From: an uncultured Spirochaetota bacterium
Lineage (GTDB): Bacteria > Spirochaetota > Spirochaetia > SZUA-6 > Fen-1364
Direction of reading: 5' to 3'
Assembly: GCA_963745235.1 (NCBI GenBank)
Contig: CAVUXE010000003.1
Span: forward strand, 81,257-145,256
Length of the DNA: 64,000 nucleotides
Of this stretch, positions 29,338 to 50,450 are shown in pieces. Position numbers and translations under genes: made by a program. Position 1 is the stretch's first letter; every line of letters starts with the position of its first letter. The notes beneath the pieces are model-generated. The model had not been told where the DNA came from and ran no database searches. It was given only the letters and a program-made list of their open reading frames with translations.

Positions 29338-30873
29338 CTACGCCTGCAGGAAAGGGATGCTCACCGTGAACACGCTGCCCGCCCCAGGGGCGGACTCCAC
29401 GGCAACCGTGCCCTGATGCAGCTCGGCGAGGCGCTTGACGAGGCTCAGGCCCAGGCCCGTGCCGGGGATGCTCGCGGTGAGCTCGTTCCTCGCGCGGTAG
29501 AACTCTTCGAAGACTTTCGCTTTTTCCGCGGGCGACATCCCGATGCCGTCATCTCTCACGCTGACCGTCGCATAGATCCCCGCGCAACCCATGCTCACCT
29601 CGACGCGACCGCCCTCCCGGCCGTACTTGATGGCATTCTCCACGAGGTTGGAGAACACGATGGAGAGAGCCTCCCTGTCCGCAAGCACCAACGGGGCCGG
29701 CCCGCAGGGTGTCGGGGCATCGCAGACGGACACGGTTATCCGCTTTTCCGCGGCACGCTCGGCATAGGCTGCCGCGACGTCCTTGAGGATTGCTCCCATG
29801 TCCACAGGCGTGCGCTTCAGAGTGAAGTTCCCGGTCTGAATGGCCGTGAGGTTCAGAAGCTCATTCACCATTCCGCGCAGGGTCCGCACCCGCAGGAGTG
29901 ACCTCTGGATCATGTGGCGCTCTTCCTCGGGGTTTTTCACGAGCATTCCGCTCAGGATGAGGTTGAGCCAGCCTTCCGTGGCCGCCAGGGGGCTCTTCAC
30001 CTCATGGGCAACCATGGAGACGAACATTGACTTCGCGGTCTCCAGCTTCTTGAGAGCGGTGATGTCGCTGAACACGGCCACGGCGCCGCTGGTCACCCCG
30101 CCCGGCTCGATCACGGGGCTTGCGTTCACCATGTATGTTTCCTTGCCGAGGGGGATCTCCCGGGAAAGGATCATGGGGCCGCCGGGGGAATCGATGATCA
30201 GCTGGAGGATCTCCTGGACGTCCGTATTGTGGATCTCCGCGAGGGGGAACGGGATCTCGTTTCTCGCGCACTGCGACAGGATGCGGGCCGCGGCGTCGTT
30301 TCGCAGCACGACCAGCTTTTCCATGTTGACTACCAGGATCCCGTCTGTCATGCAGGTGATGATGGTGTTGCTCTTGGAGCGCTCGGAGGCGAGCTCCAGG
30401 AGGCGCTTTTCCCTTTCCGCCAGGAGGCGCTTGGCGCTCAGCGTCAGGGCCCTTTTCTCCAGGCCGTTCTTGATTGCGAGGAGAAGCTCGTCCGCGGTGA
30501 ACGGCTTGGGGATGAAGCTGTATGCGCCCTGGCGCGTCCCCTCCACCGCTGTGTCGATAGTGGCATGTGCCGTGATGATGATGCAGACGATATCCTCATC
30601 ACGCGCACGCACCTCGCGCATCAGCTCCAGGCCCGACATTCGCGGCATCTGCAGGTCTACCAGGAGGACGCTGAAAGGTCCTCTTTCCAGGAACTGCTCC
30701 AGCCCCGCCTTGCCGTCGCCCGCGGTGATGACGTCGTACCCTTCGGAGGAAAGGATCTTCCGGCAGCCCTCGCGGACCCCGAGCTCGTCATCCACCACCA
30801 GGATGCGCTCGGAGGCTTCTGCGCCCACGGGTTTTGCGCTCACCGGTTCTCCGCTCACTGGTTCCCCAGTCAC
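29338..30873 (-). CDS. REC-PAS-HisKA-HATPase hybrid kinase
   Basis: VVDDE...LVDLQMP...KP; AHEVKSPL; NAIKY; GTGLGL. Confidence 0.92.
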   Translation of the reverse strand: MTGEPVSGEPVSAKPVGAEASERILVVDDELGVREGCRKILSSEGYDVITAGDGKAGLEQFLERGPFSVLLVDLQMPRMSGLELMREVRARDEDIVCIIITAHATIDTAVEGTRQGAYSFIPKPFTADELLLAIKNGLEKRALTLSAKRLLAEREKRLLELASERSKSNTIITCMTDGILVVNMEKLVVLRNDAAARILSQCARNEIPFPLAEIHNTDVQEILQLIIDSPGGPMILSREIPLGKETYMVNASPVIEPGGVTSGAVAVFSDITALKKLETAKSMFVSMVAHEVKSPLAATEGWLNLILSGMLVKNPEEERHMIQRSLLRVRTLRGMVNELLNLTAIQTGNFTLKRTPVDMGAILKDVAAAYAERAAEKRITVSVCDAPTPCGPAPLVLADREALSIVFSNLVENAIKYGREGGRVEVSMGCAGIYATVSVRDDGIGMSPAEKAKVFEEFYRARNELTASIPGTGLGLSLVKRLAELHQGTVAVESAPGAGSVFTVSIPFLQA

Positions 30874-31319
30874 CGCAGGAGCTCTTCAGCCTTTGCCAGC
30901 AGCGCCTGCGGGGAGACCGGCTTGTCGAAGAACGCATCCGCATGCATGGCCGCCAGGTCCTCCGCGGTCCGCGGATGAAAGTCGAAGCCCTTCTGGCTGG
31001 AGATGGCGGAGACAATGATGATCGGGGTGCCCGCGAAGCGCGGGTCGGTCTTCACCGCGCGCGCAAACGAGAAGCCGGAATCAAGGGCTTTCATCATCAC
31101 GTCGCAGACAACAAGCGTCCGCCGGGCTCCCGTCTGCCCGGCGCCGAGGGCCGCCAGCGCCGACTGCGGATCGCAGTGGCAGGCCACCTGGTAGCCCCGT
31201 GCTTCGAAGATCCTCCGCTCCAGCTCAAGGAAGTCGGTGTCATCGTCCAGGAGAAGGATCAGCGCGCCTTGCGGCGCGGCGCCCCCTGTTCCGGCGCCTT
31301 GCTGGCCGGCCGGGTGCAT
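30870..31319 (-). CDS. single-domain response regulator
   Basis: LLDDD, CDVMM, VSA, DKP. Confidence 0.88.
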   Translation of the reverse strand: MHPAGQQGAGTGGAAPQGALILLLDDDTDFLELERRIFEARGYQVACHCDPQSALAALGAGQTGARRTLVVCDVMMKALDSGFSFARAVKTDPRFAGTPIIIVSAISSQKGFDFHPRTAEDLAAMHADAFFDKPVSPQALLAKAEELLR

Positions 31320-31711
31320 CAGGGCTCCCTTCCAAGGGCCTTGTTGACCATGGCAAGGAGCAGCTGGGGGTCCACCGGCTTTTCCAGCAGTGCATCAACG
31401 GGGAGCCACGTGTGATCCGGTTCCAGTCGGAACGGGATGGAATCATTCACCGAGGTGATCATGACGAGGGGAATGGTGCGCGTGATCTCGGAGTTCCGAA
31501 GCTCCCGAGAGACGTCGAAGCCGTCGTTGGGGCTTTCCATCACCATGTCCAGGATGATGAGGTCCGGACGTTTCCTCTCCACCTCGTCCAGGCACTGCTT
31601 TCCATTGAAGGCCACCCGCACCGTGTAGCCGTTTTCCGTCAGGAGGGCCCGGTTCATCTCCACGAAATCCGCGTCATCGTCCACAAGAAGCACCGTCTTA
31701 TCCCACCCCAT
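31319..31711 (-). CDS. single-domain response regulator
   Basis: VDDD, LDMVM, ITS, EKP. Confidence 0.88.
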   Translation of the reverse strand: MGWDKTVLLVDDDADFVEMNRALLTENGYTVRVAFNGKQCLDEVERKRPDLIILDMVMESPNDGFDVSRELRNSEITRTIPLVMITSVNDSIPFRLEPDHTWLPVDALLEKPVDPQLLLAMVNKALGREP

Positions 31712-33710
31712 GGATCTCCTCCCTGGTCCTGTCGCCAACGGGGATGCGCACGTGGAAGGTTGTACCCTTTCCCACCTCGCTGTCCACCGTGATGTCTCCC
31801 GCATGCATCTTCACGACCCCGTACACGATGGACAGCCCCATGCCGCTGCCTTTGCCCAGCTGCTTCGTCGTGTAGAAGGGAGTGAAGATGTCCTTGAGCG
31901 TTTCCTGCGGCATCCCGCTGCCCGTGTCCCTCACGCGGAGCACGGCGAGGTCACCGGATTCCGAGAGGCCGACGCTGACCACCACCTCGCCGCCCGCCTC
32001 CCCGTTGATCGCGTCGATGCCGTTCTGCACGAGGTTCACGAGCATCTGGCGGATCTGCTCTCCGTCCGCGCTGACCCGGGGCATTGCCTCCTGGACCTCT
32101 GCCCGCACCCGCGTCCCGCTGTCGGCAAGTTTCATGTTCATGGAATCAGCGATGTCATGGGCAATGAGCCCCAGGTCAGTTGGGGTCTTCACCACCCGCG
32201 ACTGTCGGGCGAAATCCAGGAGGCCGCGCATGATGGACCTGCACCGGTTTGCCTCGTTCACGATCATCTGGATGTCCTCCGACTCCGCATCCCCCTCGCG
32301 GTGGGCCTTCAGGAGCATGTGGGAGTACAGGAGAATGGTGGAAAGCGGGTTGTTGATCTCGTGGGCCACCCCCGCGGAGATCTGGCCCATGGAAGCGAGG
32401 CGCTCCGTCTGGACCAGCCTGTCCTGCGTGGCCTGGTGGGACTTCTGGAGCACCGCGAGGGTCATCTCCAGCTCTTCCACCAGGTAGGGAAGGCACATGC
32501 TCACCTCGGCAATCCCCTGGCACACGGCAATGGCCTTCTCCCTGCAGGACGGGTAGCCGCATGACCCGCAATCCAGCTGGTCCTCGGGCCCGAACTTGCG
32601 CATGAGGCGCAGCGTGGCTTCAATGTCCTGCTCGGCCGGCTGCGGCAGGACCACCGCGTCCTCCGCGAACTCCCTGCGCAGGTCGATGTCGGCAAACTCC
32701 GCAATTGTCTCCCCCATGTCGCGGCTGGGCTGGCTCTCGTTCCGCGCATGGATGTAGTCCGTGAGCATCTCCCTGCGCGCCACGGCGCCCATGGTCCCCG
32801 GCATCCGGGGCCCGTTCAGACAGCCTTCGCAGAAAAGGACGTCGAACATGCGCGCCTTGCTCCTGCCTTCGGCCAGCTCCCTCAGCGCGGAGATGACCCG
32901 GTCCTTCCCCTCGGTGACGACGACGGTGTTCTGCAGGATGTCAGCGTCGAATCCGGCGGCGCGAAGAAGGCCTCCGGAGAGCGGGATGGACCGACCGAGG
33001 TACGACGCCGGACCGTCGAAGTCCGACGGCGGGAACGACGTCGGGTCCACGGCTGCCGTCCGCCACAGGGCGGAAAGCTCCTCATAGGTCAGCACCGCGT
33101 CCACGGTCCCTTGAACGAACCTGTCCCGTATTTCCGCCTTCTTGGCGATACAGGGACCGACGAATACCACCCGCACTCCCGCCCCGAACCTCCGCTTGAT
33201 TGCGCGCGCGGTCGCGATCATGGGGGAGACGATGGGAGCCAGCGCGCCGTGCAGGGAAGGCAGGTATTTCTGGACGTAGGACACGATGGCGGGGCACGGG
33301 GTGCTCACCACGGGCTGGCTTGCCCTGATGGCCTGGCGAGCCAGGATGGCGTACTCCTGGCTGATCAGCTCCGCCCCGAATGCCACTTCCCAGACCTGGG
33401 AGACTCCCAGGGCTCGCACCGCGGACACGATCCTGCCCGGCTCGATTCCCGCGAATGCCACCGGGAACGAAGGGGCGAGACAGGCAAACACCCGCTCGCC
33501 CGCTTCCAGCATCCTGGCAACCGCCATGGAGGAGTCTTCGATCCTTTTCGCCTTCTGCGTGCAGACTTTCACGCAGTTGCCGCAGGCGATGCATTGCTCC
33601 GCGATCACCGTGGCCTGCCCGGAGATGACCTTGATTGCCTTTGCCGGGCATTCCCGCACGCAGGTGTAGCAGCGGCGGCACTTCTCGGGAATTGTCGAGA
33701 CTATCCCCAT
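31698..33710 (-). CDS. sensory [FeFe]-hydrogenase (group C-like) fused to a histidine kinase
   Basis: 2x[4Fe-4S]; STPCP, GPCIAKKAE, FCEGCLNG; CGSCGYPSC FeS domain; AHEINNPL, HATPase boxes. Confidence 0.9.
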   Translation of the reverse strand: MGIVSTIPEKCRRCYTCVRECPAKAIKVISGQATVIAEQCIACGNCVKVCTQKAKRIEDSSMAVARMLEAGERVFACLAPSFPVAFAGIEPGRIVSAVRALGVSQVWEVAFGAELISQEYAILARQAIRASQPVVSTPCPAIVSYVQKYLPSLHGALAPIVSPMIATARAIKRRFGAGVRVVFVGPCIAKKAEIRDRFVQGTVDAVLTYEELSALWRTAAVDPTSFPPSDFDGPASYLGRSIPLSGGLLRAAGFDADILQNTVVVTEGKDRVISALRELAEGRSKARMFDVLFCEGCLNGPRMPGTMGAVARREMLTDYIHARNESQPSRDMGETIAEFADIDLRREFAEDAVVLPQPAEQDIEATLRLMRKFGPEDQLDCGSCGYPSCREKAIAVCQGIAEVSMCLPYLVEELEMTLAVLQKSHQATQDRLVQTERLASMGQISAGVAHEINNPLSTILLYSHMLLKAHREGDAESEDIQMIVNEANRCRSIMRGLLDFARQSRVVKTPTDLGLIAHDIADSMNMKLADSGTRVRAEVQEAMPRVSADGEQIRQMLVNLVQNGIDAINGEAGGEVVVSVGLSESGDLAVLRVRDTGSGMPQETLKDIFTPFYTTKQLGKGSGMGLSIVYGVVKMHAGDITVDSEVGKGTTFHVRIPVGDRTREEIHGVG

Positions 33711-33803
33711 ATGCCCACCGCAGCGGCAGCCTCTTTCTTCACTGCCGTCACAAACGGTCCCAACCCTTGCCAGCTACACATGCGCACCCTCGCGGTGCCT
33801 TTC

Positions 33804-35574
33804 CTACACCCGCTCCCTCGCGACGTACTTCGTGTGGAGCAGATGGTGGGATTTCTCCCCGAGGGGCTTGTGAAGGTATTGATCGTAGATTGCCTTCACC
33901 TCGGGGTTGTTGTGAGACTTGCGGATGGGTTTCCCCTCGTCCTCCTTGTAGATGGCGGCGATCCGGGCTTTGCGCACGTCATCCGTAGTGAGCCGCGGCT
34001 GACCGCCGCCGCCGATGCACCCACCCGGGCACGTCATGACCTCGATGAAGTGATATTGCTCGCCGGAGTGAATCCGCTCGATGAGCTTCCGGGCGTTCCC
34101 CAGGCCGTGCGCCACGCCGACACGCACCGTCACGCCCTCCAGGAAGGACCATTCGGGCACGGTTCCTTCGATCTTCACTGCGGCTTCCTTGATCCCCTGC
34201 AGCCCGGCGATGGGAGCAATGTGCAGGTTCTCGAAAGGCAGGGTCCTTCCGGTCACGATCTCGTACACGGTTCGCAGGGCAGCTTCCATCACGCCGCCGG
34301 TGTTGGCGAAGATGTCCGCCGCTCCCGACGACGCGCCCAGGATGCTGTCCATGGCGCCATCCGGCAGGCTCGTGAAATCTATCCCGGCCTGCTTGATCAT
34401 ACGCCCCAGCTCACGGGTGGTGAGGACCACGTCAACGTCACGCGCGCCGCTCGCGCACATCTCGGGCCTCTGGGACTCGTACTTCTTGGCCGTGCAGGGC
34501 ATGATCGAGACCACGAACATGTCTTCGGGTTTCTTCCCGATCTTCTCTGCAAAGTAGGTCTTTGCCACGGCGCCGAACATCTGCTGCGGAGACTTGCACG
34601 TCGAGATGTTCGGCAGGATGTCGGGCCAGAAGTGCTCCGCGTACCTGATCCACCCGGGCGAGCAGCTGGTGAACATGGGAAGCGCCACCTGCTTCTTGTC
34701 CACGAGCGCTCCCTTGAGGCGCGTCAGCAGCTCCGTTCCTTCCTCGATAATGGTCAGGTCCGCGGTGAAGTTCGTGTCGAACACCCGGTCGAACCCCATC
34801 TGCCGGAGCGCGGTGACCATCTTGCCCGTGACGAGCGTTCCCGGCGCATAGCCGAAGCACTCACCCAGGGCGGCCCGGATGGCGGGAGCGGTCTGAACCA
34901 CCACGGTCTTCTTCGGGTCGTCCAATGCCTCCCACACGCTGGCAATCTCGTCGCGCTCGCTGATTGCGCCCACGGGGCACACGGCGGCGCACTGTCCGCA
35001 TTGCACGCAGACCACCTCGGAGAGCGGCTGCGCGAACGCCGGGGCGATCATGGCCTTGAAGCCCCTCCCCTGCGGGAAGATGGCCCCCACTCCCTGCGTC
35101 TCCCCGCACACCGTGACGCAGCGCCGGCAGGACACGCACTTGGCGGTGTCACGCACGAGCGCCGGAGTGCTCAGCGTCGGTCATGCGCCTGCTCTTCGCT
35201 CCGGCGAAGGTGACCTGGCGGATGCCCAGGTCACTCGCAATGGCCTGCAGCTCGCAGTCGACGTTGCGGTCGCAGGTCTGGCAGTCCCCTTCGTGGTCGG
35301 AGAGGATGAGCTCAACCACGGTTCGCCGCGCGTTCCTGGCCCGGGGAGAGTTGGTTTGCACCTCCATTCCCTCCGCCGCCATGGTCACGCAGGAGGGCAT
35401 CAAGGTCTTTGCGCCTTTCACCTCCACCAGGCACACGCGGCAGCTCCCGATGGCCTGCACGCTCTTGAGGTAGCACAGGGACGGGATCTTGATCCCCGCC
35501 AGCCGGGCGGCTTCCAGCAGGTTCGTCCCGGCCGGGACCTGGATCTTCCTGTTGTCGATGGTCAAAGCTGGCAT
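33804..35574 (-). CDS. hydA: group A3-type [FeFe]-hydrogenase catalytic subunit (frameshift ~35175)
   Basis: N-terminal 2Fe-2S, HxxxC cluster, 2x4Fe-4S; FTSCSPGW, MPCTAKKYE, EVMTCPGGCIGGGGQP; small-subunit tail SHHLLHT. Confidence 0.93.
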
Positions 35575-35575
35575 G

Positions 35576-38500
35576 TCAGTTGGCTCCTTCTTCTCGATAG
35601 TCGCACCGCAGGCACCGCTTGCTCTCCGCGAGCGCGGCCCCGCACGGCAGCGTGAGCTCCACCTCCGCAAAGGTCCCGCTGCGCTTCGCAATCGGGATGA
35701 GCTTCACCGCCGGCCTGGCGCCCGCCACGGGATCCGCGTCCGGATCGAACTGCGCGTCAGACACGCGGCAGGTCCGCCACGGCGCATGACTCTCTCCCGT
35801 CAGGTACGCGTCGATTCCGGCAGCCGCTCTCTCCCCCGCGGCGATTGCCTCCACGACGGAGGAAGGGCCGCTGACGGCGTCACCCGCCGGCGAACACCCA
35901 GTCCACCGAGGTCTGTCCCGTGACCGGGTCAGCCCACAGGTACTCCCGCTCGTTCTGTTTCACCGCGACCCCGTCGAAGAGCGCGGAAGGCACGAGCTTC
36001 TGCCCGATGGCGGCGATGACCATGTCTGCCTCCAGGCCGGAAGTCGTTCTCGCCCTTTGCCACGGGTTTCCTGCGGCCCGTCCGGTCGAAATCACCAAGG
36101 TCCATTGTGCGGAACTTTACGGCCGTGAGCTTTTCACCCTTCCTCACAAGCTCCAGCGGAGCCGCAAGGAACTCGAAGCGCACGCCTTCCCTTTCCGCCT
36201 CTTCCACCTCTTCCGCGAAAGCCGGCATCTCCGCCCGCGTGCGTCGGTAAACCACCGTGGCGCTCTGTGCCCCCAACCGAAGGGCCGTGCGCGCCGCATC
36301 CACCGCCGCGTTCCCTCCCCCGATGACCACGACGTTCCTGCCGACCCTGGCTTTCGAGGTGAGGTTGTATTCCTTGAGGAACCCCAGCGCGTCCACGACT
36401 CCCTTCCCGTCTTCTCCGGCCATGCCGAGGCTCATTCCCTGGGGAGCGCCGACTCCGACGAACACGGCTTCGTATCCCTGCTCCTTGAGGCCGGCCAGCG
36501 TGAAGTCGGTCCCGAGCTTCTTCTTCGTCCTGATGGTCACGCCCATGTCGGCAATCATGTCGATCTCCCGGTCCAGGATGTCGCGCGGGAGGCGATACGC
36601 AGGGATGGCCTGCCGCAGCATGCCTCCTGGTTTGCTCTCAGCCTCGAACACCGTGGGCTTGTAGCCCAGGCGCGCCAGGAAGTACGCGCAGGAAAGGCCC
36701 GCGGGGCCGGCGCCGACAACCGCGATCTTCCGCTCGCCGTTCTTTCCGTCCGCAATGGGATCCGGGAGCTGGGGAGTCTTCTCCTGGTCCGACAGGAACC
36801 TCTTGACCGCTCGAACGGACAGGGGCTCGTCCAGCGTGGACCGCCGGCACTTGCCCTCGCAGGGGTGGAAACAGACCCGGGCGCAGACCCCGACGAACGG
36901 GTTTCTCTCCCGGTGCAGCTTGAGGGCCTCGTTGTAGCGCTTTTCGCCGGTGAGGCTCACGAAGCCCGGGACGTCCACGCCCGCGGGACACGCGTTCTGG
37001 CAGGGCGCCCGCACCAGCTCCGCGCACACCCCCGCGCGGCACTTGTGGTCCCTGATGTGCTCCACGAACTCATCGCGGAAGTAGCGGATGTTGGAGAGAA
37101 CCGGGTTCGGGGCGCCCTGCCCCAGGGCGCAGAGGGCCGTGTCCTGGATCGTCTTTCCCAGCTCGATGAGCCGCTCGATGTCCCCTTCCTCACCCTTCCC
37201 GGCGCAGATGCGGTCCAGGATCTCCAGCATCCTTCGCGTGCCGACCCGGCAGGGCGTGCACTTGCCGCAGGACTCGTCCTGCGTGAACTCCAGGAAGAAC
37301 CGGGCCATGTCCACCATGCAGGAGTCCTCGTCCATGACGATCAGGCCGCCGGACCCCATGATGGCGCCCAGCTGCACGATGGACTCGTAGTCGACGGGAA
37401 CGTTCAGGTGCTCCTTGGGGATGCGATCCGCCGGACGGTCCGCCCATCTGCGCCGCCTTGAACTTCTTCCCGTTGGGGATCCCGCCGCCAATGTCGTAGA
37501 TGATCTCCCCCAGCGGCACGCCCATGTTCACCTCGACAAGGCCGACGTTGTTCACCTTGCCGGTGAGCGCGAAGATCTTCGTCCCGGGGCTCTTCTCGGT
37601 CCCGACGGACCGGAACCAGGCCGCTCCGTTGGTGATGATGAGGGGAATGTTCGCCAGCGTCTCCACGTTGTTGAGCACCGACGGCTTCTCCCAGAGGCCC
37701 GCGTCGGACGGGAACGGCGGCCGCGGCCGCGGCTCTCCCCGCTTTCCTTCGATGGACCGCATGAGGGCCGTCTCTTCGCCGCAGACGAATGCGCCGGAAC
37801 CCCTGGCGATGTCGATGTCGAAGTCAAAGCCGGTGCCAAGGATGTCCGTGCCCAGGAGGCCACGCTCACGGCACTGGTTGATGGCAATGGTGAGCCGCTC
37901 GATTGCAAGCGGGTATTCCGCCCTGCAGTAGATGTATCCCTGGTGCGCGCCGATTGCCCGGGCGCCGATGATCATGCCTTCGATGACCGCGTGCGGATCG
38001 CTTTCCAGCACGCTCCTGTCCATGAACGCGCCCGGGTCTCCCTCGTCCGCGTTGCACAGGAAGTACTTGATCTCCGATTTCGAACGGGATGCGAACTCCC
38101 ACTTGGTGCCCGTGGGGAAGCCCGCACCGCCGCGGCCGCGAAGCCCCGACTTCTTGACCTCTTCCGTGATGCCCTGGGGAGTCATCTCGAGGAGCGCCTT
38201 TGCCGTCGCGATATAGCCCCCCCGCCCGATGTACTCCTCGATGCTCATGGCGGAGATCCTGCCCTTGTTGTGAAGCACGCGCAGGTTCTGCCGGGCAAAG
38301 AACGGGATATCGGCGTAGTGGGGGATCACTGCCTGCGTGATGGGATGGCGGAACATGAGCCTTTCCACCGGTCTCCCTTTCAGCACGTGCTCCTCAACGA
38401 GCTCCGCCATGTCCTCCGGCGTGAGCTTCTGATAGAAGAATCCACCCGGGTACACCACCATGATGGGGCCGCACGCGCAAAACCCGTTGCAGCCTGTCTG

Positions 38501-43293: not shown

Positions 43294-43332
43294 GAAGCCT
43301 TGATCCAATTCGACAGGATCGCTTCGATATAT

Positions 43333-43533: not shown

Positions 43534-43547
43534 CCCGGGCGCGTCAG

Positions 43548-45458
43548 CTAGTCTGCTCTGCCGAGGGCGTTCTGAACAGCGGAAATGAGGGCCTGAAGGC
43601 TGTGGGGCTTTTCTACAAGGCCAAGTGCGCCCTCGCGAAGGAGCTCCTGGGCGGAGCTGTCGATGACATGGCCAGTCGTGATGAGCACGCGCGCCTGGGG
43701 ACTGGCTTCCCTGAGAAGCCGCAGGCACTCCTTCCCGCCCATGCCCGGCATGACCAGGTCCAGCACCACCAGGTCGATGCCGATGCCATTTCCGAATCTC
43801 GCCAGGCCTTCCCTGCCGTCCCTGGCGGTAACCACCGCGTACCCGCAGCTTTCCAGCATCCGTGTGATCACCTGCCGCACCTGGGGATCATCATCGACAA
43901 CGAGGATGGTGCCGTGGCCGCGGGAGAAGCCCTGCTCTGAAGCTCCCTGCGGGGAGGTCCCGTCCGTCTGTTCGCTGCGCTCGCTCAGCGGCAGGAAGAG
44001 CTCAAACGTGGAGCCCTTTCCCGGAACGCTTGTCACCTCGATGAAGCCATTGTGGCTCGCGACGATTCCGTAGACCACGGCGAGCCCGAGCCCCGTGCCG
44101 CTGCGCACCGCCTTCGTGGTGACAAAGGGAATGAACAGTCTCTCGAGCATCTCCGGCGGCATTCCGACGCCCGTGTCGCGAACCGACAGCACGACATACT
44201 TTCCCGGCCGCCCGCTCACGTATTTTGCCGCCTCTTTCTCCGTCAGCTCCACCACGGACGTCCCGATGGTGAGAGTGCCGCCGGCAATTCCTTCCGCCCG
44301 CTCCATCATTGCATCCCGGGCGTTCAGGCAAAGATTGACAAGCACCTGGCTCATCTGGTTGGGATCAGCCTCGATATTCACGGCGTCGGGAGAGAAAGAC
44401 AGCTCGATGGCGATCTTTGGCGGAAAGGTCCTCTTGATGAGCTGCCACGTCTCACGGGCGATGTTGTTCAACGACACGGTCTGGCGCGTCCCCGGTGACT
44501 GCCGGGTGAAGAGGCGAAGCTGGCGGGTCAGCGCGGCGCCGCGGTCCACCGCGGCCCGCACCTGGATCAGGTCCTCGTACATCACGGTATCCCGCGGCGC
44601 TTCGATCAGGAGAAGCTCCATGTAGCCGTTGATGGCGGTGAGGAGGTTGTTGAAGTCGTGGGCGATCCCGCCGGCCAGCATTCCCAGGGCGTCCATCTTC
44701 TGGACCTGGAGGATCTGGGCCTGGAGTCTCTTGCGCTCGGTGATGTCGACCACGGAGGACATCAGGCCAATGGCCCTGCTTTCCTCGTTTCTGACCACGG
44801 AAGCGGACAGCTCCACGCTGAACACGACGCCGTCCTTGCGGCGCGCCACAAGCTCCCCCCGCCACCCCCCCGAGCGGGGAAGGAGCTGCACGATGTCGCG
44901 AGCTTTTTCCCCGACCCAGATGTCTCCCATGGGAGCGCCGATGGCTTCGGCGGCGGACGCGTAGCCCCACATCTGCAGGAACGCGGAGTTCACCCACGTG
45001 ATCTTCCCGTCAAGGTCCGCCAGCACGATCCCGTTGATCGAGGTATTGATGGCGTGATTCTTGATGAAGAGCTCCTGGCTCTGGCTTTCCAACGCGGCGG
45101 AGAGCGCGTGACGCAGCTGTTCCTGGTCCGTGAGAATCTGCTGCTCGCGGGATTTCATGAAACCTGCAAGAAGCGCCTCAATGAAGGCGTCGGCGGCCGT
45201 GAGCGATTCCTGATTCCGCAGCCGCGTGCTGAGAAGCAGGATCGTTCTTTCGCCGAGTCCCTCCCTGGCAAGCTTCTGGCCGACCCCGGACGGGTCGGCA
45301 GCCGGGTCCTTTTCGATGAACCCGAGGAAAGAGCCCGCAAGCTCCTGTCCGATCTCCAGAAGACGGCGCGGATGCAGGGAATACCGGTTCTCGAACGCCG
45401 ATTCACGCAGGCTCGAGCCGAGTGCATCCCCAAGAGTCTTCAGAGCGGACTCGGTCAT
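43548..45458 (-). CDS. hybrid histidine kinase (helical N-domain-PAS-HisKA-HATPase-REC)
   Basis: AGGIAHDFNNLL, NARDAM, GTGLGL, VVLDLVMP...EKP. Confidence 0.92.
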   Translation of the reverse strand: MTESALKTLGDALGSSLRESAFENRYSLHPRRLLEIGQELAGSFLGFIEKDPAADPSGVGQKLAREGLGERTILLLSTRLRNQESLTAADAFIEALLAGFMKSREQQILTDQEQLRHALSAALESQSQELFIKNHAINTSINGIVLADLDGKITWVNSAFLQMWGYASAAEAIGAPMGDIWVGEKARDIVQLLPRSGGWRGELVARRKDGVVFSVELSASVVRNEESRAIGLMSSVVDITERKRLQAQILQVQKMDALGMLAGGIAHDFNNLLTAINGYMELLLIEAPRDTVMYEDLIQVRAAVDRGAALTRQLRLFTRQSPGTRQTVSLNNIARETWQLIKRTFPPKIAIELSFSPDAVNIEADPNQMSQVLVNLCLNARDAMMERAEGIAGGTLTIGTSVVELTEKEAAKYVSGRPGKYVVLSVRDTGVGMPPEMLERLFIPFVTTKAVRSGTGLGLAVVYGIVASHNGFIEVTSVPGKGSTFELFLPLSERSEQTDGTSPQGASEQGFSRGHGTILVVDDDPQVRQVITRMLESCGYAVVTARDGREGLARFGNGIGIDLVVLDLVMPGMGGKECLRLLREASPQARVLITTGHVIDSSAQELLREGALGLVEKPHSLQALISAVQNALGRAD

Positions 45459-46249
45459 TTTTCCAGAATGACGCCCTGCATGGTCACGGAGTCCTGTTTC
45501 ATCGTTTCTTCCTCAACGGCCGTCTTCATGCCGATCCACTCTTCCAGGGGCAGGAAGCCGGGCTCCCTCACTCTCCATGGCCGTATCAGCTGCTGGAGAG
45601 TATCCAGGGGTCGGAACCTCATGGGTTGGCCGAGCCCCTTGTAGATGTTGAAGATCTCCTGCAGCGTGGGTGATATGGCCTCTCCCTGCAGGCACATGTC
45701 GCAGAGGAAGAGCCGGGAACCCGCATCCGCCCAGTCGTAGAGGGCTTTCATTGCATGGCCGATGGCATCGTCACTCAGAAAAAACGCGACTCCGTTGATG
45801 CCGAACGCGATCCTTCGGCTGGTTCCGAAAAACTCCGTGACCACGGGCGCGCCCAGGAGATCCTCCGGCGTGCCCACGTTGCAGGCGACGTAGCGTGCGT
45901 TGGGGTTGTCCTTCAGTATTTCCTGCCCGTACGCGACGGTGACGGGGTCGATGTCGGAATAGATGACCTTCGTGCCCGCCGGGGTGATCTGGTGGATGTG
46001 ATCGATTGTCGGCAGTCCCGAGGCAAAATCGATGAACTGGGTGTATCCATCCGCCGCGAGCCGTCTCACCGCCTCGCCAAGGAACCAGCGGATGAGCCGG
46101 AGAACTTTCGGGAGAAAAGGTGCCTGCTTGAGGACTTGCTGGGTCGCCTGTCTGTCCACGTCGAAATTGTGGTTTCCTCCCAGCATGAAGTCGTACATCC
46201 GGCCGGCGTTGGGCTTGCTCGAATCAGCGATTGACGCGTACTCAGGCAT
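45455..46249 (-). CDS. SAM-dependent methyltransferase (Methyltransf_19-like)
   Basis: PNAGRMYDFMLGGNHNFDVDR, QFIDFASGLPT, VIYSDIDP. Confidence 0.85.
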   Translation of the reverse strand: MPEYASIADSSKPNAGRMYDFMLGGNHNFDVDRQATQQVLKQAPFLPKVLRLIRWFLGEAVRRLAADGYTQFIDFASGLPTIDHIHQITPAGTKVIYSDIDPVTVAYGQEILKDNPNARYVACNVGTPEDLLGAPVVTEFFGTSRRIAFGINGVAFFLSDDAIGHAMKALYDWADAGSRLFLCDMCLQGEAISPTLQEIFNIYKGLGQPMRFRPLDTLQQLIRPWRVREPGFLPLEEWIGMKTAVEEETMKQDSVTMQGVILEK

Positions 46250-46324
46250 TGTGACTCCTCTTCCCCTCTCTCCAGTATCATCGCGGAAAAGGGGGCCCAT
46301 AGCAAGGTTCGCCGCACCTGGATG

Positions 46325-46351
46325 AAAAAGGCGGCGTCCGGCGTGGCCGCC
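46325..46351 (-). terminator. intrinsic terminator after the REC-FapA gene
   Basis: Minus strand GGCGGC-N10-GCCGCC-TTTTT. Confidence 0.6.
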
Positions 46352-46384
46352 CCGGGGGACAGGGTCACACGCGCGCGGCTGGAA

Positions 46385-48112
46385 TCAAGCTCTGCCCAGA
46401 CGCTGCGGGGTTATCACGTTGGAAGTCCTGTCCAGGACCAGGCGTACTCCGCTCATCGACTGGGCAACCGCGAAAGGCACATGGCAGAGCTCCACGAGCA
46501 CGCCACGGTGGATCTCCCCTGCTGCCGCGACAGTGGATTCCTTGTTCTTGTCCAGCAAGGCAGCAAGGCCTTTCGCGGAATCGCTCATCTTGTGCATTGC
46601 GGTCTTCAGATTGTCACGAGCCTGGAGAAGGTGCGGGTCCCCCTGCCCCCGAGCGGCAAGCCTGGCCTCCACGTCCTTGAGCGCGAGGCCGAGCTCCGCG
46701 TTCTTGTCCTTGATCCAGGCAAGCTTCTGCTGAACCCGGGAGTCTTCACCGCAGCAGATCTCGGTTCGAACGCCCGCGGGGCTTCCGATCTGGAAGGCGG
46801 TGACTCCTTTGACCGCATCGATCCTGCCGCCGATGATCACGCCCTTCGGCCCCGTGCAGACCGCACCGAGGGCCTTGATGGCTGAATTGAGGCAACCGGT
46901 GGTCAAAAGCACATCCCCCCCGGCCTCAACGGAGCAGTTCTCTATGAACTTGGCGCGGACCCGTCCGCCAACCTTCACAATGCTGCCCGGCCTTCCCAGG
47001 ATTCCCTGGTCCGTCTCCAGGTCGCCGCCGCAGGAAATCTCCGAGGCGTCGATGGTCCTGGCGCACGTGAGGGACCCTCCCGCCTTCACATTGAAGCCCT
47101 GCTTTATCTGGCCCCGCACGATGACGTCGCCGGGGAAGTCGATGTGCCCCGTTGAATAGTCCACGTCGCCGGAGATCTCCAGCACCTCGCTTACCCAGAA
47201 GGAATCCTCACCCAGCACGAACTTCCCGTCACACCCGGCCACTACCGAGTCCCCCTGAGCCAGGGTGTTCTTGCCCGGTCGAAGCGTCGCGCACGCGGTC
47301 CGGCCGTAGGCGACGGCGGCCCCTGTGACGTCGACACCGGCTGCGCCCTCCGTGCGGGGAGATACCCGCGCAAGGATGTCGCCTTTCTTGACGAGCTGGA
47401 AGGGGCTGAGCGCCTTGAAATCGATTGCCCTCGTCTCCGAGCTCTCGGGGGCCGCCTTCGTGAGCAGCGAGGGCTCGACGTCCAGGTGACGGTCGACCTC
47501 GTTCGAAGGCTTCTGGCCGTGCGCTATCTCTCTGTCGACGAGCGCCGTGCGCGACGTGTTGCAGGAAAGGATCGAAGAATTGACCAGGTCCCAGTCGATT
47601 CCGAAACGCACGCCTTTTGCCGTCAGAAGATCGCGCACTTCATCAAGCTCGATCCGCCCCGCGCCCGCGGCCGGGGCAGAGAAGCTGGCGACCGCGGTCA
47701 TGCGATCGTCGGAGATCCGCACCTCGACGCGGCGCTCCGGGCCTCCTGCTCTCTTCTGCTCCCGGGACCGGCTGAGCGCCATCTTCACCGTCGCTTCCAG
47801 CGACCTTTCTTCGATGGGCTTGAGAACGAACCCGAAGGGCTCTGTGGGAGTGTCGGAGAGGGAGCTCAGATGGACCGCGGGTATGCCGGTGGAATCCCTG
47901 ATCAGGCGCGCGGCATCCGTCCCGCTCATCGCGCCCGAAAGGTGCGCGCCAATGAGGACCAGGTCCGCCGCCAGGGTGACGGATTTTTCCGCGGCCTCCT
48001 CACCGGTGGCAAGAACGTCCGGGACCTCGTAGCCCAGTCTTTCCAGGCAGTCCTTGATAGCGAGTGCGACAGGTTCTTCGGCTTCAACGACGAGGATCCG
48101 GGCGCGGTCCAT
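46385..48112 (-). CDS. pseudo-receiver fused to FapA/DUF342
   Basis: N-terminal REC fold (RILVVEAE, DLVLIG, LKP); VKKGDILA, GVDVTG, GDVDYSTGHIDFPGDV, GVIIGG beta-helix. Confidence 0.85.
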   Translation of the reverse strand: MDRARILVVEAEEPVALAIKDCLERLGYEVPDVLATGEEAAEKSVTLAADLVLIGAHLSGAMSGTDAARLIRDSTGIPAVHLSSLSDTPTEPFGFVLKPIEERSLEATVKMALSRSREQKRAGGPERRVEVRISDDRMTAVASFSAPAAGAGRIELDEVRDLLTAKGVRFGIDWDLVNSSILSCNTSRTALVDREIAHGQKPSNEVDRHLDVEPSLLTKAAPESSETRAIDFKALSPFQLVKKGDILARVSPRTEGAAGVDVTGAAVAYGRTACATLRPGKNTLAQGDSVVAGCDGKFVLGEDSFWVSEVLEISGDVDYSTGHIDFPGDVIVRGQIKQGFNVKAGGSLTCARTIDASEISCGGDLETDQGILGRPGSIVKVGGRVRAKFIENCSVEAGGDVLLTTGCLNSAIKALGAVCTGPKGVIIGGRIDAVKGVTAFQIGSPAGVRTEICCGEDSRVQQKLAWIKDKNAELGLALKDVEARLAARGQGDPHLLQARDNLKTAMHKMSDSAKGLAALLDKNKESTVAAAGEIHRGVLVELCHVPFAVAQSMSGVRLVLDRTSNVITPQRLGRA

Positions 48113-48163
48113 GTGGCTCGACGCCTCCCGCTGCACCAAGCGTACCATCCGGGGCCCGCTTTT

Positions 48164-49557
48164 TCAGCCCCTGTAGCTCTCCCGCTCAAGCCCGTACTTC
48201 TTCATGCGCTCGTACAGCGCGCGCCGGGAGATGCCCAGGGACTGCCACGTTGCGTTGATTTCCCCCTTGTGGTCCTTCAGCGCCGCTTCGATGACTCTTC
48301 GCTCCACTTTCTCCAGCTCGTCGCGAAGGAGGCCCTCTCCCGGGGGGACCGAGAGGAGCCTGCCGGCATCGCCCATCATATCGGGAGAAAAACCTCCCGC
48401 CGTCCCGTCGCGGGAGGTGATCACCATCCGCTCCACGGCGTTCTTCAGCTCCCGCACGTTCCCGGGCCACGGGTAGCGCACCATGTCTGCAAGGGTCGCT
48501 TCCGGCACCGCGGGGACAGGAATGCCGTTCCTGTCTGAGGCCAGCTTGAGGAAGTGAGACGCCAGGAGCGTGATGTCTTCCGCTCTTTCCCGAAGGGGAG
48601 GAACGCGGATGCAGAGCACCATGATCCTGTGATAGAAGTCCTCCCGGATGGCCCCGGCTCTGACCTCCTCCGAGAGCTCCACGTTGGAAGCGCACACGAG
48701 CCTGATGTCGACCTTGCGCGGCTTGTCGCTGCCCAGGGCCTCCACGACTCCGTCGTCCAGCACGCGCAGGAGCTGCACTTGCGCGCGGGCGGAGATCGTC
48801 TCTATCTCATCAAGGAGGAGCGTGCCCCCGGATGCCATGACGAGCTTGCCCTCCCGCTGCTCCACCGCCCCCGTGAAAGAGCCCTTGGCGTGGCCGAAGA
48901 GCTCGCTTTCCAGCATGGTCTCGGGAAGGGCGCCCGCGTTCACCGGCACGAACGGGCCGTTGGACCGACGGCTCTGCGCGTGGATTGCCCGGGCAACCAG
49001 CTCCTTGCCGGCCCCTGTCTCTCCCAGGAGGAGCACCGGCACATCCGAGCGGGCAGCCGCCTCCACCTGGGCATAGACTTCCTGGATTGCCCGGCTGCGC
49101 CCTATCATGCCGAACCTGCCGTCCTCCCCGGGGAGCACAGCCGCAGCCGGCGCCGCAGGTCCCGCGCCTCACGGACCAGCCGGCTCTTCTCCACCGCCTT
49201 GGCAACGTAGGCCAGGAGGACGTCGTCGTCAAACGGCTTTTCCGCGAAATCGAAGGCGCCCGCTTTCAGGCAGCGCACCGCCATGGCGATGTCGCCATGC
49301 CCGGTGATCATGACAACAGGAGGCGCCGCGGCCATGGCCGTGATGTGCGCAAGGAACTCCTCCCCGTCCATTCCCGGCATCTTCACATCCGTTATGATGC
49401 ACATGGCCTCCGGCAGGCCGGGCCATGCCAGCGCGGCTTCCGCGGAGGAGAAGACCTCCGGCTGCCACCCGCGAAGGCGGAGCATCTGCCCGATGGAGTG
49501 CCGCGCGGCCTCGTCATCATCTATCACGACGATTGTCGAGCCTTCCTGCCCTGCCAT
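48164..49557 (-). CDS. sigma-54-dependent response regulator (DctD/NtrC-like bEBP; frameshift ~49135)
   Basis: REC (TDVKMP, TGHG, EKP), [38 protein letters not shown], Fis-type HTH. Confidence 0.92.
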
Positions 49558-50450
49558 CAGTTTCCGCCCCCCATCGCGTTCCGCCGGGCGCCGGGCAGGC
49601 GGATGCGGAACGTTGCACCCGTTCCGGGGGCCCCGGCGGCCTCGATCTCCCCCTTGTGGTCCTTGATGATGGCGCGGGAGATGGAAAGCCCGAGGCCGTG
49701 GCCTCCCTTGCGCGTCGTGTAGAAGGGCTGGAAGAGCTTCCGTGCCTGCTCTTCCGAGAAGCCTTTGCCCGTGTCGCGGATCTCGATCACCACGGGCAGC
49801 TCGGGTGTTCCGTCTCGCCGGCTTGTGACGCTGAGGCGCCTGTCTGCCGCGCCGTCCATGGCCTGGCGGGCGTTGGTGAGCAGGTTGAGGAAGACCTGGG
49901 CAAGCCTGATCCTGTCTCCCCAGACCGGAGGCAGGTCGGGCTCCAGGGAAAGGGAGAGCTCCACCTCGGAAAGCTTCATCTGGGGGACCAGGAACTCCAT
50001 GCACTCCCGCAGGACTCCGTTGATTTCCAGGATGGAGAAGGTAGTGTCCGACCTGCGGGTGAGCTCCCGCATCTGGTTGATGATCCGTGCCGCCCTGTCC
50101 ACCTGCTCCGAGATGAGGCGGAGGTTGCCCTTCACCTCCTCTTCGCTGCCTGCCTTTTTCTCGATCATGTAGAAGGCGTTGCGGGCATAGTTCCTGATGC
50201 CCGTCAGGGGCTGGTTGAGCTCGTGAGAGATCGAGGCAGCCATCTCCCCCAGCTCTGCCAGCCGCGTGGAATGCTCAAGCTGCTCTTCCTGCCTTCGACC
50301 CAGCTCGGAGAGCTCCCCCAGCTTCTCCTCGCTCTCGTGGCAGTCGCGGCGGGCGCGCGCAAGCGAACGGGAGAGTGAGGCGGCGCGGACGGACAGGACG
50401 ATGATCACCGTGACGGCCGCGAACAGGAGACTGAGAATGATTGCGCTCAG
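49557..50450 (-). CDS. DctB-like histidine kinase with a single TM and no sensor domain (start uncertain)
   Basis: LGEMAASISHELNQPL, LAQVFLNLLTNA, DTGKG, GLGLSIS; the inverted copy has ATG at the equivalent codon. Confidence 0.85.
   Translation of the reverse strand: MSAIILSLLFAAVTVIIVLSVRAASLSRSLARARRDCHESEEKLGELSELGRRQEEQLEHSTRLAELGEMAASISHELNQPLTGIRNYARNAFYMIEKKAGSEEEVKGNLRLISEQVDRAARIINQMRELTRRSDTTFSILEINGVLRECMEFLVPQMKLSEVELSLSLEPDLPPVWGDRIRLAQVFLNLLTNARQAMDGAADRRLSVTSRRDGTPELPVVIEIRDTGKGFSEEQARKLFQPFYTTRKGGHGLGLSISRAIIKDHKGEIEAAGAPGTGATFRIRLPGARRNAMGGGN

Follow-up and report, generated by a model that had tools for sequence, protein, structure and literature searches.

The window analysed here is a stretch of 64,000 nucleotides (nt) from an uncultured Spirochaetota bacterium (assembly GCA_963745235.1, contig CAVUXE010000003.1, positions 81,257 to 145,256 of the forward strand). 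Its subject is an operon on the minus strand, running from 43293 down to 29338, that encodes a HydABC/Bfu-type [FeFe]-hydrogenase and two hydrogenase-like sensors, one joined to a Ser-kinase domain and the other to a histidine kinase. Comparison with related loci shows that a predicted sigma-54 promoter, a dedicated enhancer and an NtrC-type activator with its neighbouring kinase belong to this type of operon in the phyla that bear sigma-54. The same comparison carries the putative promoter and enhancer sites, the synteny of the activator, the predicted enzyme type and sensor folds, and the fusion of Rex to the first gene product in Actinomycetota. Control of the operon by sigma-54 and the activator is very likely. 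The best explanation of the whole locus, an operon driven by sigma-54 and the activator and equipped with two sensor branches, is held with moderate confidence.

The relatives were collected by scanning one genome per species, the Ser-kinase sensor serving as the query. This yielded 429 confirmed relatives; 80 loci were retained and labelled from L001 onwards. The query gene is present in all 80 by construction, and the presence of the other genes was scored by tblastn of the window proteins against these loci. Among these 80 of 429, the closest are metagenome-assembled genomes of Spirochaetota, with 67–70% identity, and the others belong to Actinomycetota (40), Planctomycetota (12), Hydrogenedentota (6) and single other groups. 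The domain content of the window genes was obtained by Pfam searches, and intact orthologues (L001, L003 and L013) were used via tblastn for merging gene pieces. The control elements and the operon genes are the following.

49557–50408, minus strand: histidine kinase with HisKA and HATPase domains, neighbour of the activator and its cognate kinase (Pfam).
48164–49557, minus strand: NtrC-type sigma-54 activator with receiver (REC), AAA+ and HTH_8 domains; the REC open reading frame (ORF) spans 49105 to about 49557 and the Sigma54_activat/AAA_lid/HTH_8 ORF 48164–49138 (Pfam).
43498–43533, minus strand: predicted enhancer (upstream activating sequence) dyad with a 14-nt core at 43510–43523 (alignments of upstream regions).
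43362–43388, minus strand: second conserved dyad, TCTCGA-N15-TCGAGA, shared by the window and L001–L006.
43334–43348, minus strand: predicted sigma-54 promoter TGGCACaacgcTTGC (exact pattern match and conserved position in relatives).
42940–43293, minus strand: DRTGG-fold protein of 117 amino acids (aa), assigned by fold, with no significant Pfam match.
41378–42943, minus strand: SpoIIAB/RsbT-like Ser-kinase domain, 2x[4Fe-4S], divergent [FeFe]-hydrogenase H-domain and C-terminal Fe-S motif (Pfam, AlphaFold2 (AF2), Foldseek).
40267–41405, minus strand: PHP-domain phosphoesterase, candidate phosphatase, start approximate (Pfam PHP and PHP_C; tblastn with the L003 orthologue).
39729–40292, minus strand: stand-alone HATPase_c protein of about 180 aa, without DHp domain (Pfam).
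39086–39715, minus strand: HydC, NuoE-like 2Fe-2S subunit (Pfam, E 5.2e-49; NCBIfam HoxE/NuoE similarity).
38671–39093, minus strand: small thioredoxin-like 2Fe-2S ferredoxin, HydD/BfuD-like (Pfam, E 2e-5).
35579–38674, minus strand: HydB, a NuoF-like FMN/NADH subunit fused to a GltD-like module of Fer4_20 and FAD/NAD(P) domain (Pfam on pieces and the intact L003 orthologue).
33804–35574, minus strand: HydA catalytic subunit with 2Fe-2S, His-ligated 4Fe-4S, 2x4Fe-4S, H-domain and small-subunit-like tail (Pfam, motifs, tblastn).
31698–33710, minus strand: hydrogenase-like sensor with histidine kinase, comprising 2x4Fe-4S, H-domain, Fe-S motif, HisKA and HATPase (Pfam Fe_hyd_lg_C, E 3.5e-44).
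31319–31711, minus strand: single-domain receiver REC1 (Pfam).
30870–31319, minus strand: single-domain receiver REC2 (Pfam).
29338–30873, minus strand: REC-(PAS-like)-HisKA-HATPase kinase with a PnpS/PhoR-like core (REC-HK), final operon gene (Pfam, NCBIfam).

After merging of the frameshifted pieces the operon holds 12 genes and five more lie upstream, 17 in all; an earlier note on this DNA had counted 18 minus-strand genes, 13 of them in the operon, which is right for the strand and not for the number. Its description of the operon genes as mostly overlapping or abutting fits nine of the 11 junctions, which overlap or are at most 13 nt apart. The remaining two are that of HydB-GltD with HydA, placed by tblastn matches and apparently overlapping, and a gap of 93 nt before the gene of the hydrogenase-histidine kinase. 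Upstream, 254 nt separate the operon start (43293) from a PAS-hybrid kinase gene (43548).

The box TGGCAC-N5-TTGC matches exactly at 43334–43348 on the minus strand, 41 nt before the ATG at 43293, and presents the GG of the -24 and the GC of the -12 element at the canonical spacing. Transcription would start at about 43322–43323, some 30 nt before this ATG. A mirror copy, also exact, stands at 63064–63078 on the plus strand. The two exact matches in the window compare with 0.12 expected, and none of 100 shuffles reaches two. When two mismatches are allowed the motif is at chance level (67 found, 66.4 expected), and the case for the promoter consequently lies in the exact match and still more in its conservation. 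A box with at most one mismatch, GG and GC kept, lies 27–69 nt before the first gene in all 16 evaluable Spirochaetota loci, and 16 of the 19 boxes present in 481,054 strand-bases of these loci are the operon promoter site. The sigma-54 promoter that the earlier note had placed ahead of the operon is borne out by the exact box and by these 16 loci. A consensus scan of 28900–44000 gave no sigma-70-like promoter (0 found, 1.2 expected).

The enhancer was found by aligning the upstream regions of the relatives, where a conserved block is centred on the palindrome TCTCCCATGGGAGA. With at most one mismatch, TCNCCCATGGGNGA has 18 matches in the 1,246,491 bases of the 80 loci, all of them upstream of the first gene of the operon: 14 in Spirochaetota, two in Hydrogenedentota (L057, L071), one in Nitrospiraceae (L043) and one in Planctomycetota (L075). 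Seventeen were measured at 109–283 nt upstream of the -24 box, and that of L075 lies at about 200 nt by an arithmetic estimate. Versions with two mismatches are visible in the alignment for L004 and L006. The core of the window at 43510–43523, TCGCCCATGTGCAA, has two mismatches to TCNCCCATGGGNGA and starts 175 nt upstream of the -24 box, which is within the range of upstream activator dyads of sigma-54 promoters (roughly 80–300 nt). Between enhancer and promoter the relatives L001–L006 share the second dyad as TTCTCGA-N15-17-TCGAGAA; it may be the site of a second regulator or a site of DNA bending. A stricter enhancer pattern, TGTGC-N20-28-GCACA, was dropped, as it missed the window's own site and gave one unrelated match in the window (0.5 expected) and nine scattered matches in the loci. 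A copy of the palindrome with one mismatch, TCTCCCATGGGAGC, occurs at 44923–44936 inside the coding sequence of the PAS-hybrid kinase, only in the first arm (arm A) of an inverted repeat described below; it may be a coincidence, the chance expectation being roughly 0.1–0.2 per window by estimate.

The activator carries Sigma54_activat (E 1.2e-62) and HTH_8 (E 4.1e-11) in Pfam, with the motifs GETGAGKE (Walker A), GSFTGA and LLLDEI. The AAA+ domain, GAFTGA-type loop and HTH of an enhancer-binding protein are thus all present, in the window copy after read-through of one frameshift. Walker A, G(A/S)FTGA, Walker B and the recognition helix are conserved across phyla, and the conserved recognition helix fits the conserved enhancer palindrome. 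Orthologues of the kinase-activator pair, with 65–87% identity to the AAA-HTH part of the window protein, occur in the upstream flank of 12 of the 16 Spirochaetota loci, within 600 nt in 11 of them, and the pair is also found in L031, L057, L071 and L074; tblastn finds no activator in the flanks of L002–L005. Where the pair is adjacent, the enhancer directly follows the stop codon of the activator. A DNA methylase gene stands between activator and enhancer in L001, and three genes in the window.

The sigma-54 activator upstream of the operon, whose synteny in relatives the earlier note had set as a test, passes it with these counts. The note had extended the test to the methyltransferase block, which is not syntenic: the methyltransferase occurs in none of the 80 loci, FapA is limited to L002 and L003, at a distance of about 6 kb, and the PAS-hybrid kinase (43548–45458) gives one weak match among the 80, restricted to the REC domain, in L002. 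In the proposed mechanism the operon would be transcribed from the promoter at 43334–43348, the regulator at 48164–49557, phosphorylated by its adjacent kinase, being expected to bind the enhancer about 175 nt upstream and to open the promoter.

The operon itself is conserved. The eight core genes after the query (PHP, HATPase, NuoE, small ferredoxin, NuoF, GltD, N- and C-terminal parts of HydA) are present in 45 of the 47 loci whose downstream flank is 9.5 kb or longer; L039 and L066 are the exceptions. The hydrogenase-histidine kinase lies downstream in 36 of the 45 loci with at least 11.4 kb (misses: L013, L039 and seven Planctomycetota). REC1, REC2 and REC-HK follow in L013 and L031, whereas L066 groups REC2, sensor kinase, REC-HK and REC1 ahead of the structural genes; these three loci hold the orthologues of REC-HK (29338–30873). 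REC1 follows the sensor kinase in relatives, and REC2 precedes it in Actinomycetota loci. In L011 (Hydrogenedentota) two hydrogenase clusters of this general kind stand back to back on opposite strands (1895–9260 and 9666–21590). Two Planctomycetota loci carry the H-cluster maturase HydF directly upstream of the operon (L037, 8089–9435; L048, 8018–9247) and weaker -24/-12-like boxes, TGGCCC-N5-TTGC, 103–122 nt before the first gene.

The enzyme of the operon is, by its predicted domains, a cytoplasmic HydABC/Bfu-type [FeFe]-hydrogenase of the predicted bifurcating class. HydA has the P1, P2 and P3 motifs (TSCSP, MPCTAKK, MTCPGGC) and the N-terminal Fe-S domains of group A3, its Cys being invariant in 38 of 38 sequences. 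The closest solved structures are the bifurcating HydA1 proteins 8a6t_A (E 1.2e-151) and 7q4v_A, and the L003 orthologue passes the NCBIfam model NF040763, 'NADH-dependent [FeFe] hydrogenase, group A6', with 882.6 bits against a cut-off of 765. The motif TSCSP was considered as a mark of an inactive HydA and rejected, as 7q4v_A shares it and the Ser is common according to the accessible part of PMC11406978. HydB and HydC are NuoF-like and NuoE-like (Complex1_51K, SLBB, NADH_4Fe-4S, 2Fe-2S_thioredx). The C-terminal 2x[4Fe-4S] ferredoxin domain of HydB (clusters B3/B4, the low-potential branch) is replaced in the window and in L003 by Fer4_20 and Pyr_redox_2, a GltD-like end that HydB shares with BfuB of sub-type I as described in the available sections of PMC11406978.

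In Actinomycetota the same operon has another front end. The 39 evaluable loci contain one sigma-54-like box, no enhancer and no activator, and in 37 of them the first gene is about 240–300 codons longer. In all four loci tested by Pfam (L012, L020, L022 and L026, at about 8850–10030) the extension is Rex (Put_DNA-bind_N and CoA_binding), in one ORF with the DRTGG-like region. Rex-box-like sites (TGTGAATCGNTTCACA; TGTGA-N6-TCACA) stand just upstream of the fusion gene in 11 loci, with TGTGAATCGCTTCACA as the candidate operator; the consensus given in the accessible part of PMC6391272, on the control of hydrogenase and fermentation genes in Gram-positive bacteria by Rex, a repressor that senses NADH/NAD+, is TTGTGAANNNNTTCACAA. 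The comparison thus shows a predicted replacement of the sigma-54 promoter, enhancer and activator by Rex in Actinomycetota. Rex-type control, which the earlier note had named as the usual model for Firmicutes, finds here an unexpected confirmation, in a Rex fused to the DRTGG protein of the operon itself. The fusion makes the Ser-kinase branch an input to transcription in Actinomycetota, and it is the best argument that this branch ends on transcription.

These sites also raise the question of Rex repression in the window, by a Rex encoded elsewhere and with the dyads by the -24 box as operator. Conserved words resembling half-sites, TTGTGA and TTCACGA, do stand on either side of the promoter-proximal dyad, both in the window and in L001–L003, and TTCACGA, at 43350–43356, abuts the -24 box. 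However, they are about 47 nt apart, not 4, and no Rex box with up to three mismatches occurs in 43290–43560. Pfam finds no Rex domain among the window genes, so that both marks of a Rex-controlled operon are missing here and present in the Actinomycetota relatives; the extension is also absent from the 16 Spirochaetota, 12 Planctomycetota and 6 Hydrogenedentota loci. Rex repression in the window is accordingly very improbable.

Both sensors named in the earlier note, one with a Ser/Thr-type and one with a histidine kinase, are supported by Pfam, and the first also by its predicted fold. The first one (41378–42943) matches PF04060 (E 1.6e-13), part of Fe_hyd_lg_C and HATPase_c_2 (E 1.1e-8). 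It keeps P-x-C-P, x-x-C-P-x-Q and x-C-x-x-G-C, and all 67 sequences compared have the four candidate H-cluster Cys. Its AF2 model (predicted local distance difference test, pLDDT, 88.9) aligns in Foldseek with [FeFe]-hydrogenases over about 386–490 columns (E 1.6e-11), and the N-terminal domain matches SpoIIAB (1tid_C and 1til_E, target-normalized TM-score, TMt, 0.82–0.83). The N-box and G-boxes of a GHKL Ser-kinase are present, with E46/N50 and G102–G108 invariant in 54 of 54 sequences. The architecture is that of group D (M2e, TamHydS-like, TamHydS being compared by description only): H-domain, C-terminal Fe-S motif, no PAS and a position upstream of the group A enzyme.

The DRTGG protein encoded by the first gene was correctly named in the earlier note, although its Pfam match is below the cut-off (E 0.022, 15.1 bits versus 25.2). 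The AF2 model (pLDDT 89.7) has as top PDB match 2ioj_A, AF1212 'Pfam DRTGG' (E 5.8e-7, query-normalized TM-score, TMq, 0.76), which confirms the assignment, and it also matches the CBS-DRTGG region of a pyrophosphatase. An assignment to the STAS proteins was rejected by fold. Ser35 and Cys69 are invariant across 54 sequences. The complex predicted for kinase residues 1–145 and the DRTGG protein scores 0.68, versus 0.39 for the best of three controls; 116 of 157 solved complexes attain the mark for such scores, as do 2 of 215 mismatched pairs, and these counts are approximate, our own alignments having been used. The runs share at least 98% of the contacts and the partner pLDDT is at least 86. 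The predicted interface joins DRTGG residues 32–36 to the N-box (45–49) and the ATP lid (101–108) of the kinase. We know of no solved complex of a kinase with a DRTGG protein.

The predicted complex speaks for an association of the Ser-kinase domain with the DRTGG protein in the region of Ser35. The fusion protein would bind its partner and probably phosphorylate the invariant Ser35, from which the PHP protein is likely to remove the phosphate. That Ser35 acts as a switch has a little better than an even chance. SpoIIAB, RsbW and RsbT are partner-switching Ser kinases with STAS-domain substrates and PP2C phosphatases. The pair in the window resembles them in the small GHKL Ser-kinase domain and in the small alpha/beta partner that, in the predicted complex, presents a conserved Ser to the ATP site. 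On the other hand, this partner has the DRTGG and not the STAS fold, the candidate phosphatase is a PHP and not a PP2C protein, the kinase is fused to a redox/H2 sensor, and neither a sigma nor an anti-sigma factor is involved. The pair may work like partner switching but is not a member of that family of systems.

The second sensor (31698–33710) keeps T-P-C-P-A, G-P-C-I-A-K-K and F-C-E-G-C, with Cys invariant in 23 of 23 sequences. Its H-domain is that of group C (HydS, M2f): the four cluster Cys are kept, the proton-relay Cys is lost and Met is replaced by Gly in P2, the meaning of these residues being taken from the accessible part of PMC8163306. The C-terminal PAS domain of group C has no Pfam match in 31698–33710, where HisKA and HATPase_c stand instead; forms of this kind are classed as 'C3' in the available sections of PMC11406978. 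The closest PDB entry of the kinase core is ZraS (E 2.5e-37) and the closest NCBIfam model AtoS (E 2.7e-58, below cut-off). AtoS/ZraS-type kinases pair with NtrC-family regulators. The AtoS/ZraS-like core is a weak argument for a histidine-kinase branch that reaches the activator, an outcome that is doubtful. The more direct proposal is that this fusion would feed the three receivers of the operon. Both sensors probably report H2 or the redox state. We infer that the signalling depends on H2, and one or both sensor branches would modulate the activator.

The signal received by the activator is the point at which the readings diverge. Its own kinase is most like AtoS in NCBIfam (E 1.1e-55, below cut-off), and in the PDB it comes closest to FixL chimeras, with ZraS next. 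Such likenesses of the kinase cores to FixL, ZraS and AtoS, from PDB and NCBIfam, are a soft hint at a partner only. Orthologues have a multi-pass membrane domain in 13 of the 14 relatives examined, and 8 of these 13 also have PAS. The membrane domain, without Pfam match, carries the motif HTDxxYTHFMYIPIALACMWWGRRG (L006–L010, L013, L018, L019, L030, L031, L036, L071, L074). The window and L001 versions have neither membrane domain nor PAS; in the window the N-terminus of the kinase is uncertain, with one short hydrophobic segment and indels nearby (50330–50700, compared with L001).

The membrane and PAS domains of the relatives suggest that the activator may answer only its own kinase and a signal other than H2. 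The hydrogenase-like kinases would then act elsewhere, either post-translationally on the enzyme or on unlinked regulators via the receivers and the DRTGG protein. Actinomycetota keep the set of sensor kinase and receivers without sigma-54, as the grouping in L066 illustrates, L013 has activator, enhancer and promoter and no sensor histidine kinase, and the operon has no output domain; all this fits such a separation. By contrast, the activator kinases of the window and of L001 have lost the membrane and PAS parts and with them any obvious input of their own, the fusion of the DRTGG protein to a DNA-binding regulator in Actinomycetota suggests that this branch acts on transcription, and the sensor histidine kinase has a core of the AtoS/ZraS kind. 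An activator that answers only its own kinase is on this evidence rather unlikely.

The earlier note had proposed that the Ser/Thr and histidine kinase branches converge on the sigma-54 activator as their sole output, in a feedback loop of H2 or redox. Its statement that the operon encodes no DNA-binding output domain agrees with Pfam and suits this proposal, as do the linkage of promoter, enhancer and activator to the operon, the AtoS/ZraS-like core, the activator kinase of the window without a sensor domain, and the Rex-DRTGG fusion, which shows that a transcription factor can be the end point of the Ser-kinase branch. However, both links to the activator are without direct evidence, the modules occur separately, the similarities of receivers and kinases are uninformative, and the three receivers within the operon are more obvious targets of the sensor histidine kinase. 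Full convergence is therefore unlikely.

A system similar in logic exists for [NiFe]-hydrogenases. Ralstonia eutropha has the NtrC-type activator HoxA, sigma-54 promoters of hydrogenase genes and the kinase HoxJ. The window shares with this circuit, its closest counterpart by logic, a hydrogenase-derived sensor, a histidine kinase, an NtrC-family regulator and sigma-54 promoters. The sensor of R. eutropha, unlike that of the window, is [NiFe] and unrelated to the [FeFe] fold, and the link from sensor to activator has been demonstrated there and is proposed here. According to the available text of PMC5665086, the regulatory hydrogenase (RH, HoxBC) is bound to a histidine kinase; that kinase is a separate PAS protein, whereas the window sensor and kinase are fused. 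The operon could be the [FeFe] counterpart of RH-HoxJ-HoxA with a second channel. The sensor-histidine kinase would set the activator directly or via REC-HK, and the second H-cluster sensor would phosphorylate Ser35 of a DRTGG protein that modulates the activator. In Actinomycetota, H2 and NADH signals would meet on one operator via Rex. This extension is speculative and unlikely as a whole; if true, DRTGG would be a new kind of phospho-acceptor switch domain.

Several points weigh against an operon driven by sigma-54 and the activator with two sensor branches. All the results are in silico and concern a contig of an uncultured organism. In the window the activator is 5 kb from the promoter with three genes between, one of the two mismatches of the enhancer core falls in the CCCATGGG centre, and no rpoN is seen in the 64 kb of genome in view. 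The activator has its own kinase, with a membrane domain and with or without PAS in relatives, and needs no input from the sensors. Pairwise BLAST of four kinase cores and six receivers singled out no partner, and the AtoS/ZraS likeness is below the curated cut-offs. The P2 Lys of the Ser-kinase sensor is Gln in 65 of 67 sequences, and binding of an H-cluster by such proteins is doubted in the accessible part of PMC11406978. Regarding the predicted complex, an unrelated control protein already scored 0.39, and part of the confidence may come from the likeness of the kinase to SpoIIAB in solved SpoIIAB-SpoIIAA complexes. The modules are also separable: L013 has promoter, enhancer and activator but no hydrogenase-histidine kinase, 7 of 9 Planctomycetota lack this kinase downstream, and Actinomycetota keep both sensor kinases without sigma-54. 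Finally, with at least five frameshifts in the activator, HydB and HydA of the window, the locus could be decayed.

The frameshifts were located by tblastn with intact orthologues. One, near 49126–49132, splits the REC from the AAA-HTH part of the activator, which in relatives is a single ORF of 466–492 aa (L001, L013). Three affect HydB-GltD (about 37415–37602, 36040–36086 and 35883–35887), NuoF and GltD forming one protein of 1031–1032 aa in relatives (1031 aa in L003), and one affects HydA (about 35173–35237), whose intact orthologues are one ORF of 592–621 aa. The window pieces remain 85–95% identical to the orthologues at the protein level. The breaks in activator, HydB and HydA are read as probable indel errors and not as decay because the indels come without matching amino-acid divergence.

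The upstream region is further complicated by an inverted repeat, which contains the remaining genes between activator and operon.

46385–48148, minus strand: REC-FapA_N-FapA protein (Pfam).
45455–46300, minus strand: S-adenosylmethionine methyltransferase of the Methyltransf_19 family (Pfam, E 1.8e-45).
43548–45458, minus strand: hybrid kinase PAS-HisKA-HATPase-REC, CckA-like by similarity (Pfam, NCBIfam).
53313–64000, plus strand: inverted second copy of 42411–53098 (BLAST), with histidine kinase, activator, FapA, methyltransferase, PAS kinase, enhancer, promoter, DRTGG and the start of the Ser-kinase sensor; it leaves the window at its end.

The earlier note had overlooked this repeat. BLAST aligns the two arms, 42411–53098 (arm A) and 53313–64000 (arm B), over 10,739 columns at 94.3% identity, in an alignment that contains 509 mismatches and opens 86 gaps. 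The MAFFT alignment has 75 runs of gaps, of which 64 span a single nt. Because of this repeat the upstream block and the promoter are present twice, and the hydrogenase operon below 42411 is in single copy in the window. The identity is patchy, reaching 100% over 45242–46488 and 50619–51835 and 77–88% over the kinase and activator genes (48161–50660). The stretch from enhancer to promoter (43373–43528) is identical between the arms, and enhancer and promoter are the same in both. Substitutions between arms fall at third codon positions in 94 of 138 cases in the AAA-HTH part and in 58 of 90 in the PAS kinase, and the arms are therefore two genuinely diverged coding sequences and not one noisy sequence. 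Each arm shares 79.5% identity with L001. When L001 is taken as outgroup, the arms are at nearly the same distance from their ancestor, 129 changes being specific to arm A (73% at third positions) and 136 to arm B (51%). The ORFs of arm B are broken by many single-base indels, and 60 of the 98 indel columns lie outside homopolymers. The arms join inside a truncated UvrD-like gene. The inverted copy would be explained by an assembly that folded a poorly covered second haplotype back, which is favoured by a small margin over a true duplication with gene-conversion tracts.

These features bear on whether the locus works at all. Hydrogenase and activator could be pseudogenes, or the locus a product of the assembly, inverted copy of 10.7 kb included, that merges two related genomes. 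Five frameshifts in genes otherwise 85–95% conserved, fragmentary genes elsewhere in the window, and the gap runs and broken ORFs of a repeat that meets in a truncated gene would suit this possibility. Against it, the third-position bias (94 of 138 in AAA-HTH; 73% in arm A) reveals selection on coding sequence, not decay. Moreover, the gene order from the enhancer through the operon (43533–29338) agrees with that of independent assemblies, the short-read ones L013 and L030 included, and indels without amino-acid divergence look like read errors. A non-working locus is thus improbable, and the sigma-54-driven operon with two sensor branches remains the preferred explanation.

Part of this arrangement is already in print. 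The available sections of PMC11406978 describe in silico, for Hydrogenedentota, sub-type I BfuABC(D) clusters with neighbouring 'group C' hydrogenase-like genes, and report homologues in Spirochaetota and Planctomycetota. The window shares with these clusters a DPD_II and FAD/NAD(P) domain in place of the ferredoxin domain of BfuB/HydB, a Ser at the fifth P1 position of HydA, and HATPase_c-bearing and histidine-kinase-bearing hydrogenase-like proteins beside the A3 enzyme. By contrast, the word 'sigma' is absent from the main text of PMC11406978, and its relevant passages mention no activator, enhancer, DRTGG protein or Rex fusion. The remark of the earlier note that it did not recognise the arrangement as characterised consequently fails for the sensor fusions and the enzyme type and, as far as the listed matches show, stands for the link to sigma-54 and enhancer. 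Among the matches listed in the open-access literature there is no account of sigma-54/activator control of an [FeFe] bifurcating hydrogenase, nor of the enhancer palindrome, the link of DRTGG with hydrogenase or the Rex-DRTGG fusion; the terms DRTGG and hydrogenase occur together in just two papers of that literature, whose titles concern other subjects. A survey of the sigma-54 regulon (PMC12316311) names among hydrogenases only [NiFe] and formate-hydrogenlyase genes.

The accessible part of PMC8163306 places group D sensors upstream of bifurcating hydrogenases and poses as a question how their signal is relayed. TamHydS (group D, M2e) and TmHydS (group C, M2f), as described there, share with the window proteins the H-domain with C-terminal Fe-S motif, the loss of proton-relay residues, a gene position with or upstream of a bifurcating group A enzyme and a proposed regulatory role. 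They differ in that the group D-like protein of the window has an N-terminal SpoIIAB-like Ser-kinase domain, the group C-like protein has HisKA and HATPase and not PAS, and TamHydS has a HATPase and an AraC regulator as neighbours in place of sigma-54 elements. PMC3608648 gives an account of the Thermoanaerobacter arrangement.

The locus and its relatives offer a testable wiring for how putative sensory [FeFe]-hydrogenases of groups C and D, characterised spectroscopically, may signal. The handles are the predicted sigma-54 promoter, the 14-nt enhancer palindrome with its cognate activator across four phyla, the candidate phospho-site Ser35 and the natural Rex-DRTGG fusion. One conserved operon appears with a transcriptional front end swapped between phyla, sigma-54 and activator versus Rex, which is of use to those who engineer the H2 metabolism of uncultured anaerobes or try to interpret it. 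Should the links from sensors to activator fail, an ordinary sigma-54 operon with accessory signalling genes remains.

Further features of the window are of minor concern. Upstream of the gene of the activator's kinase, TTGAGA-N17-TATAAT at 50467–50502 on the minus strand could be a sigma-70-type promoter of the upstream five-gene unit, or coding sequence of the kinase N-terminus as in L001. The contig seems frameshift-rich overall, and fragmentary or chimeric ORFs include a piece of EPSP synthase at 8714–9259 (profile positions 151–264 of 417), a partial SBP_bac_5 at 11339–12289 and, at 51963–53057, one ORF that joins a PALP fragment to the N-terminus of UvrD. Another PAS-HisKA-HATPase-REC hybrid kinase, positionally unrelated to the operon, lies at 20737–22875 on the plus strand. 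Genes typical of anaerobes occur at 9679–10653 and 16517–18070, also on the plus strand: a desulfoferrodoxin-type superoxide reductase beside ferritin, and a trans-2-enoyl-CoA reductase.

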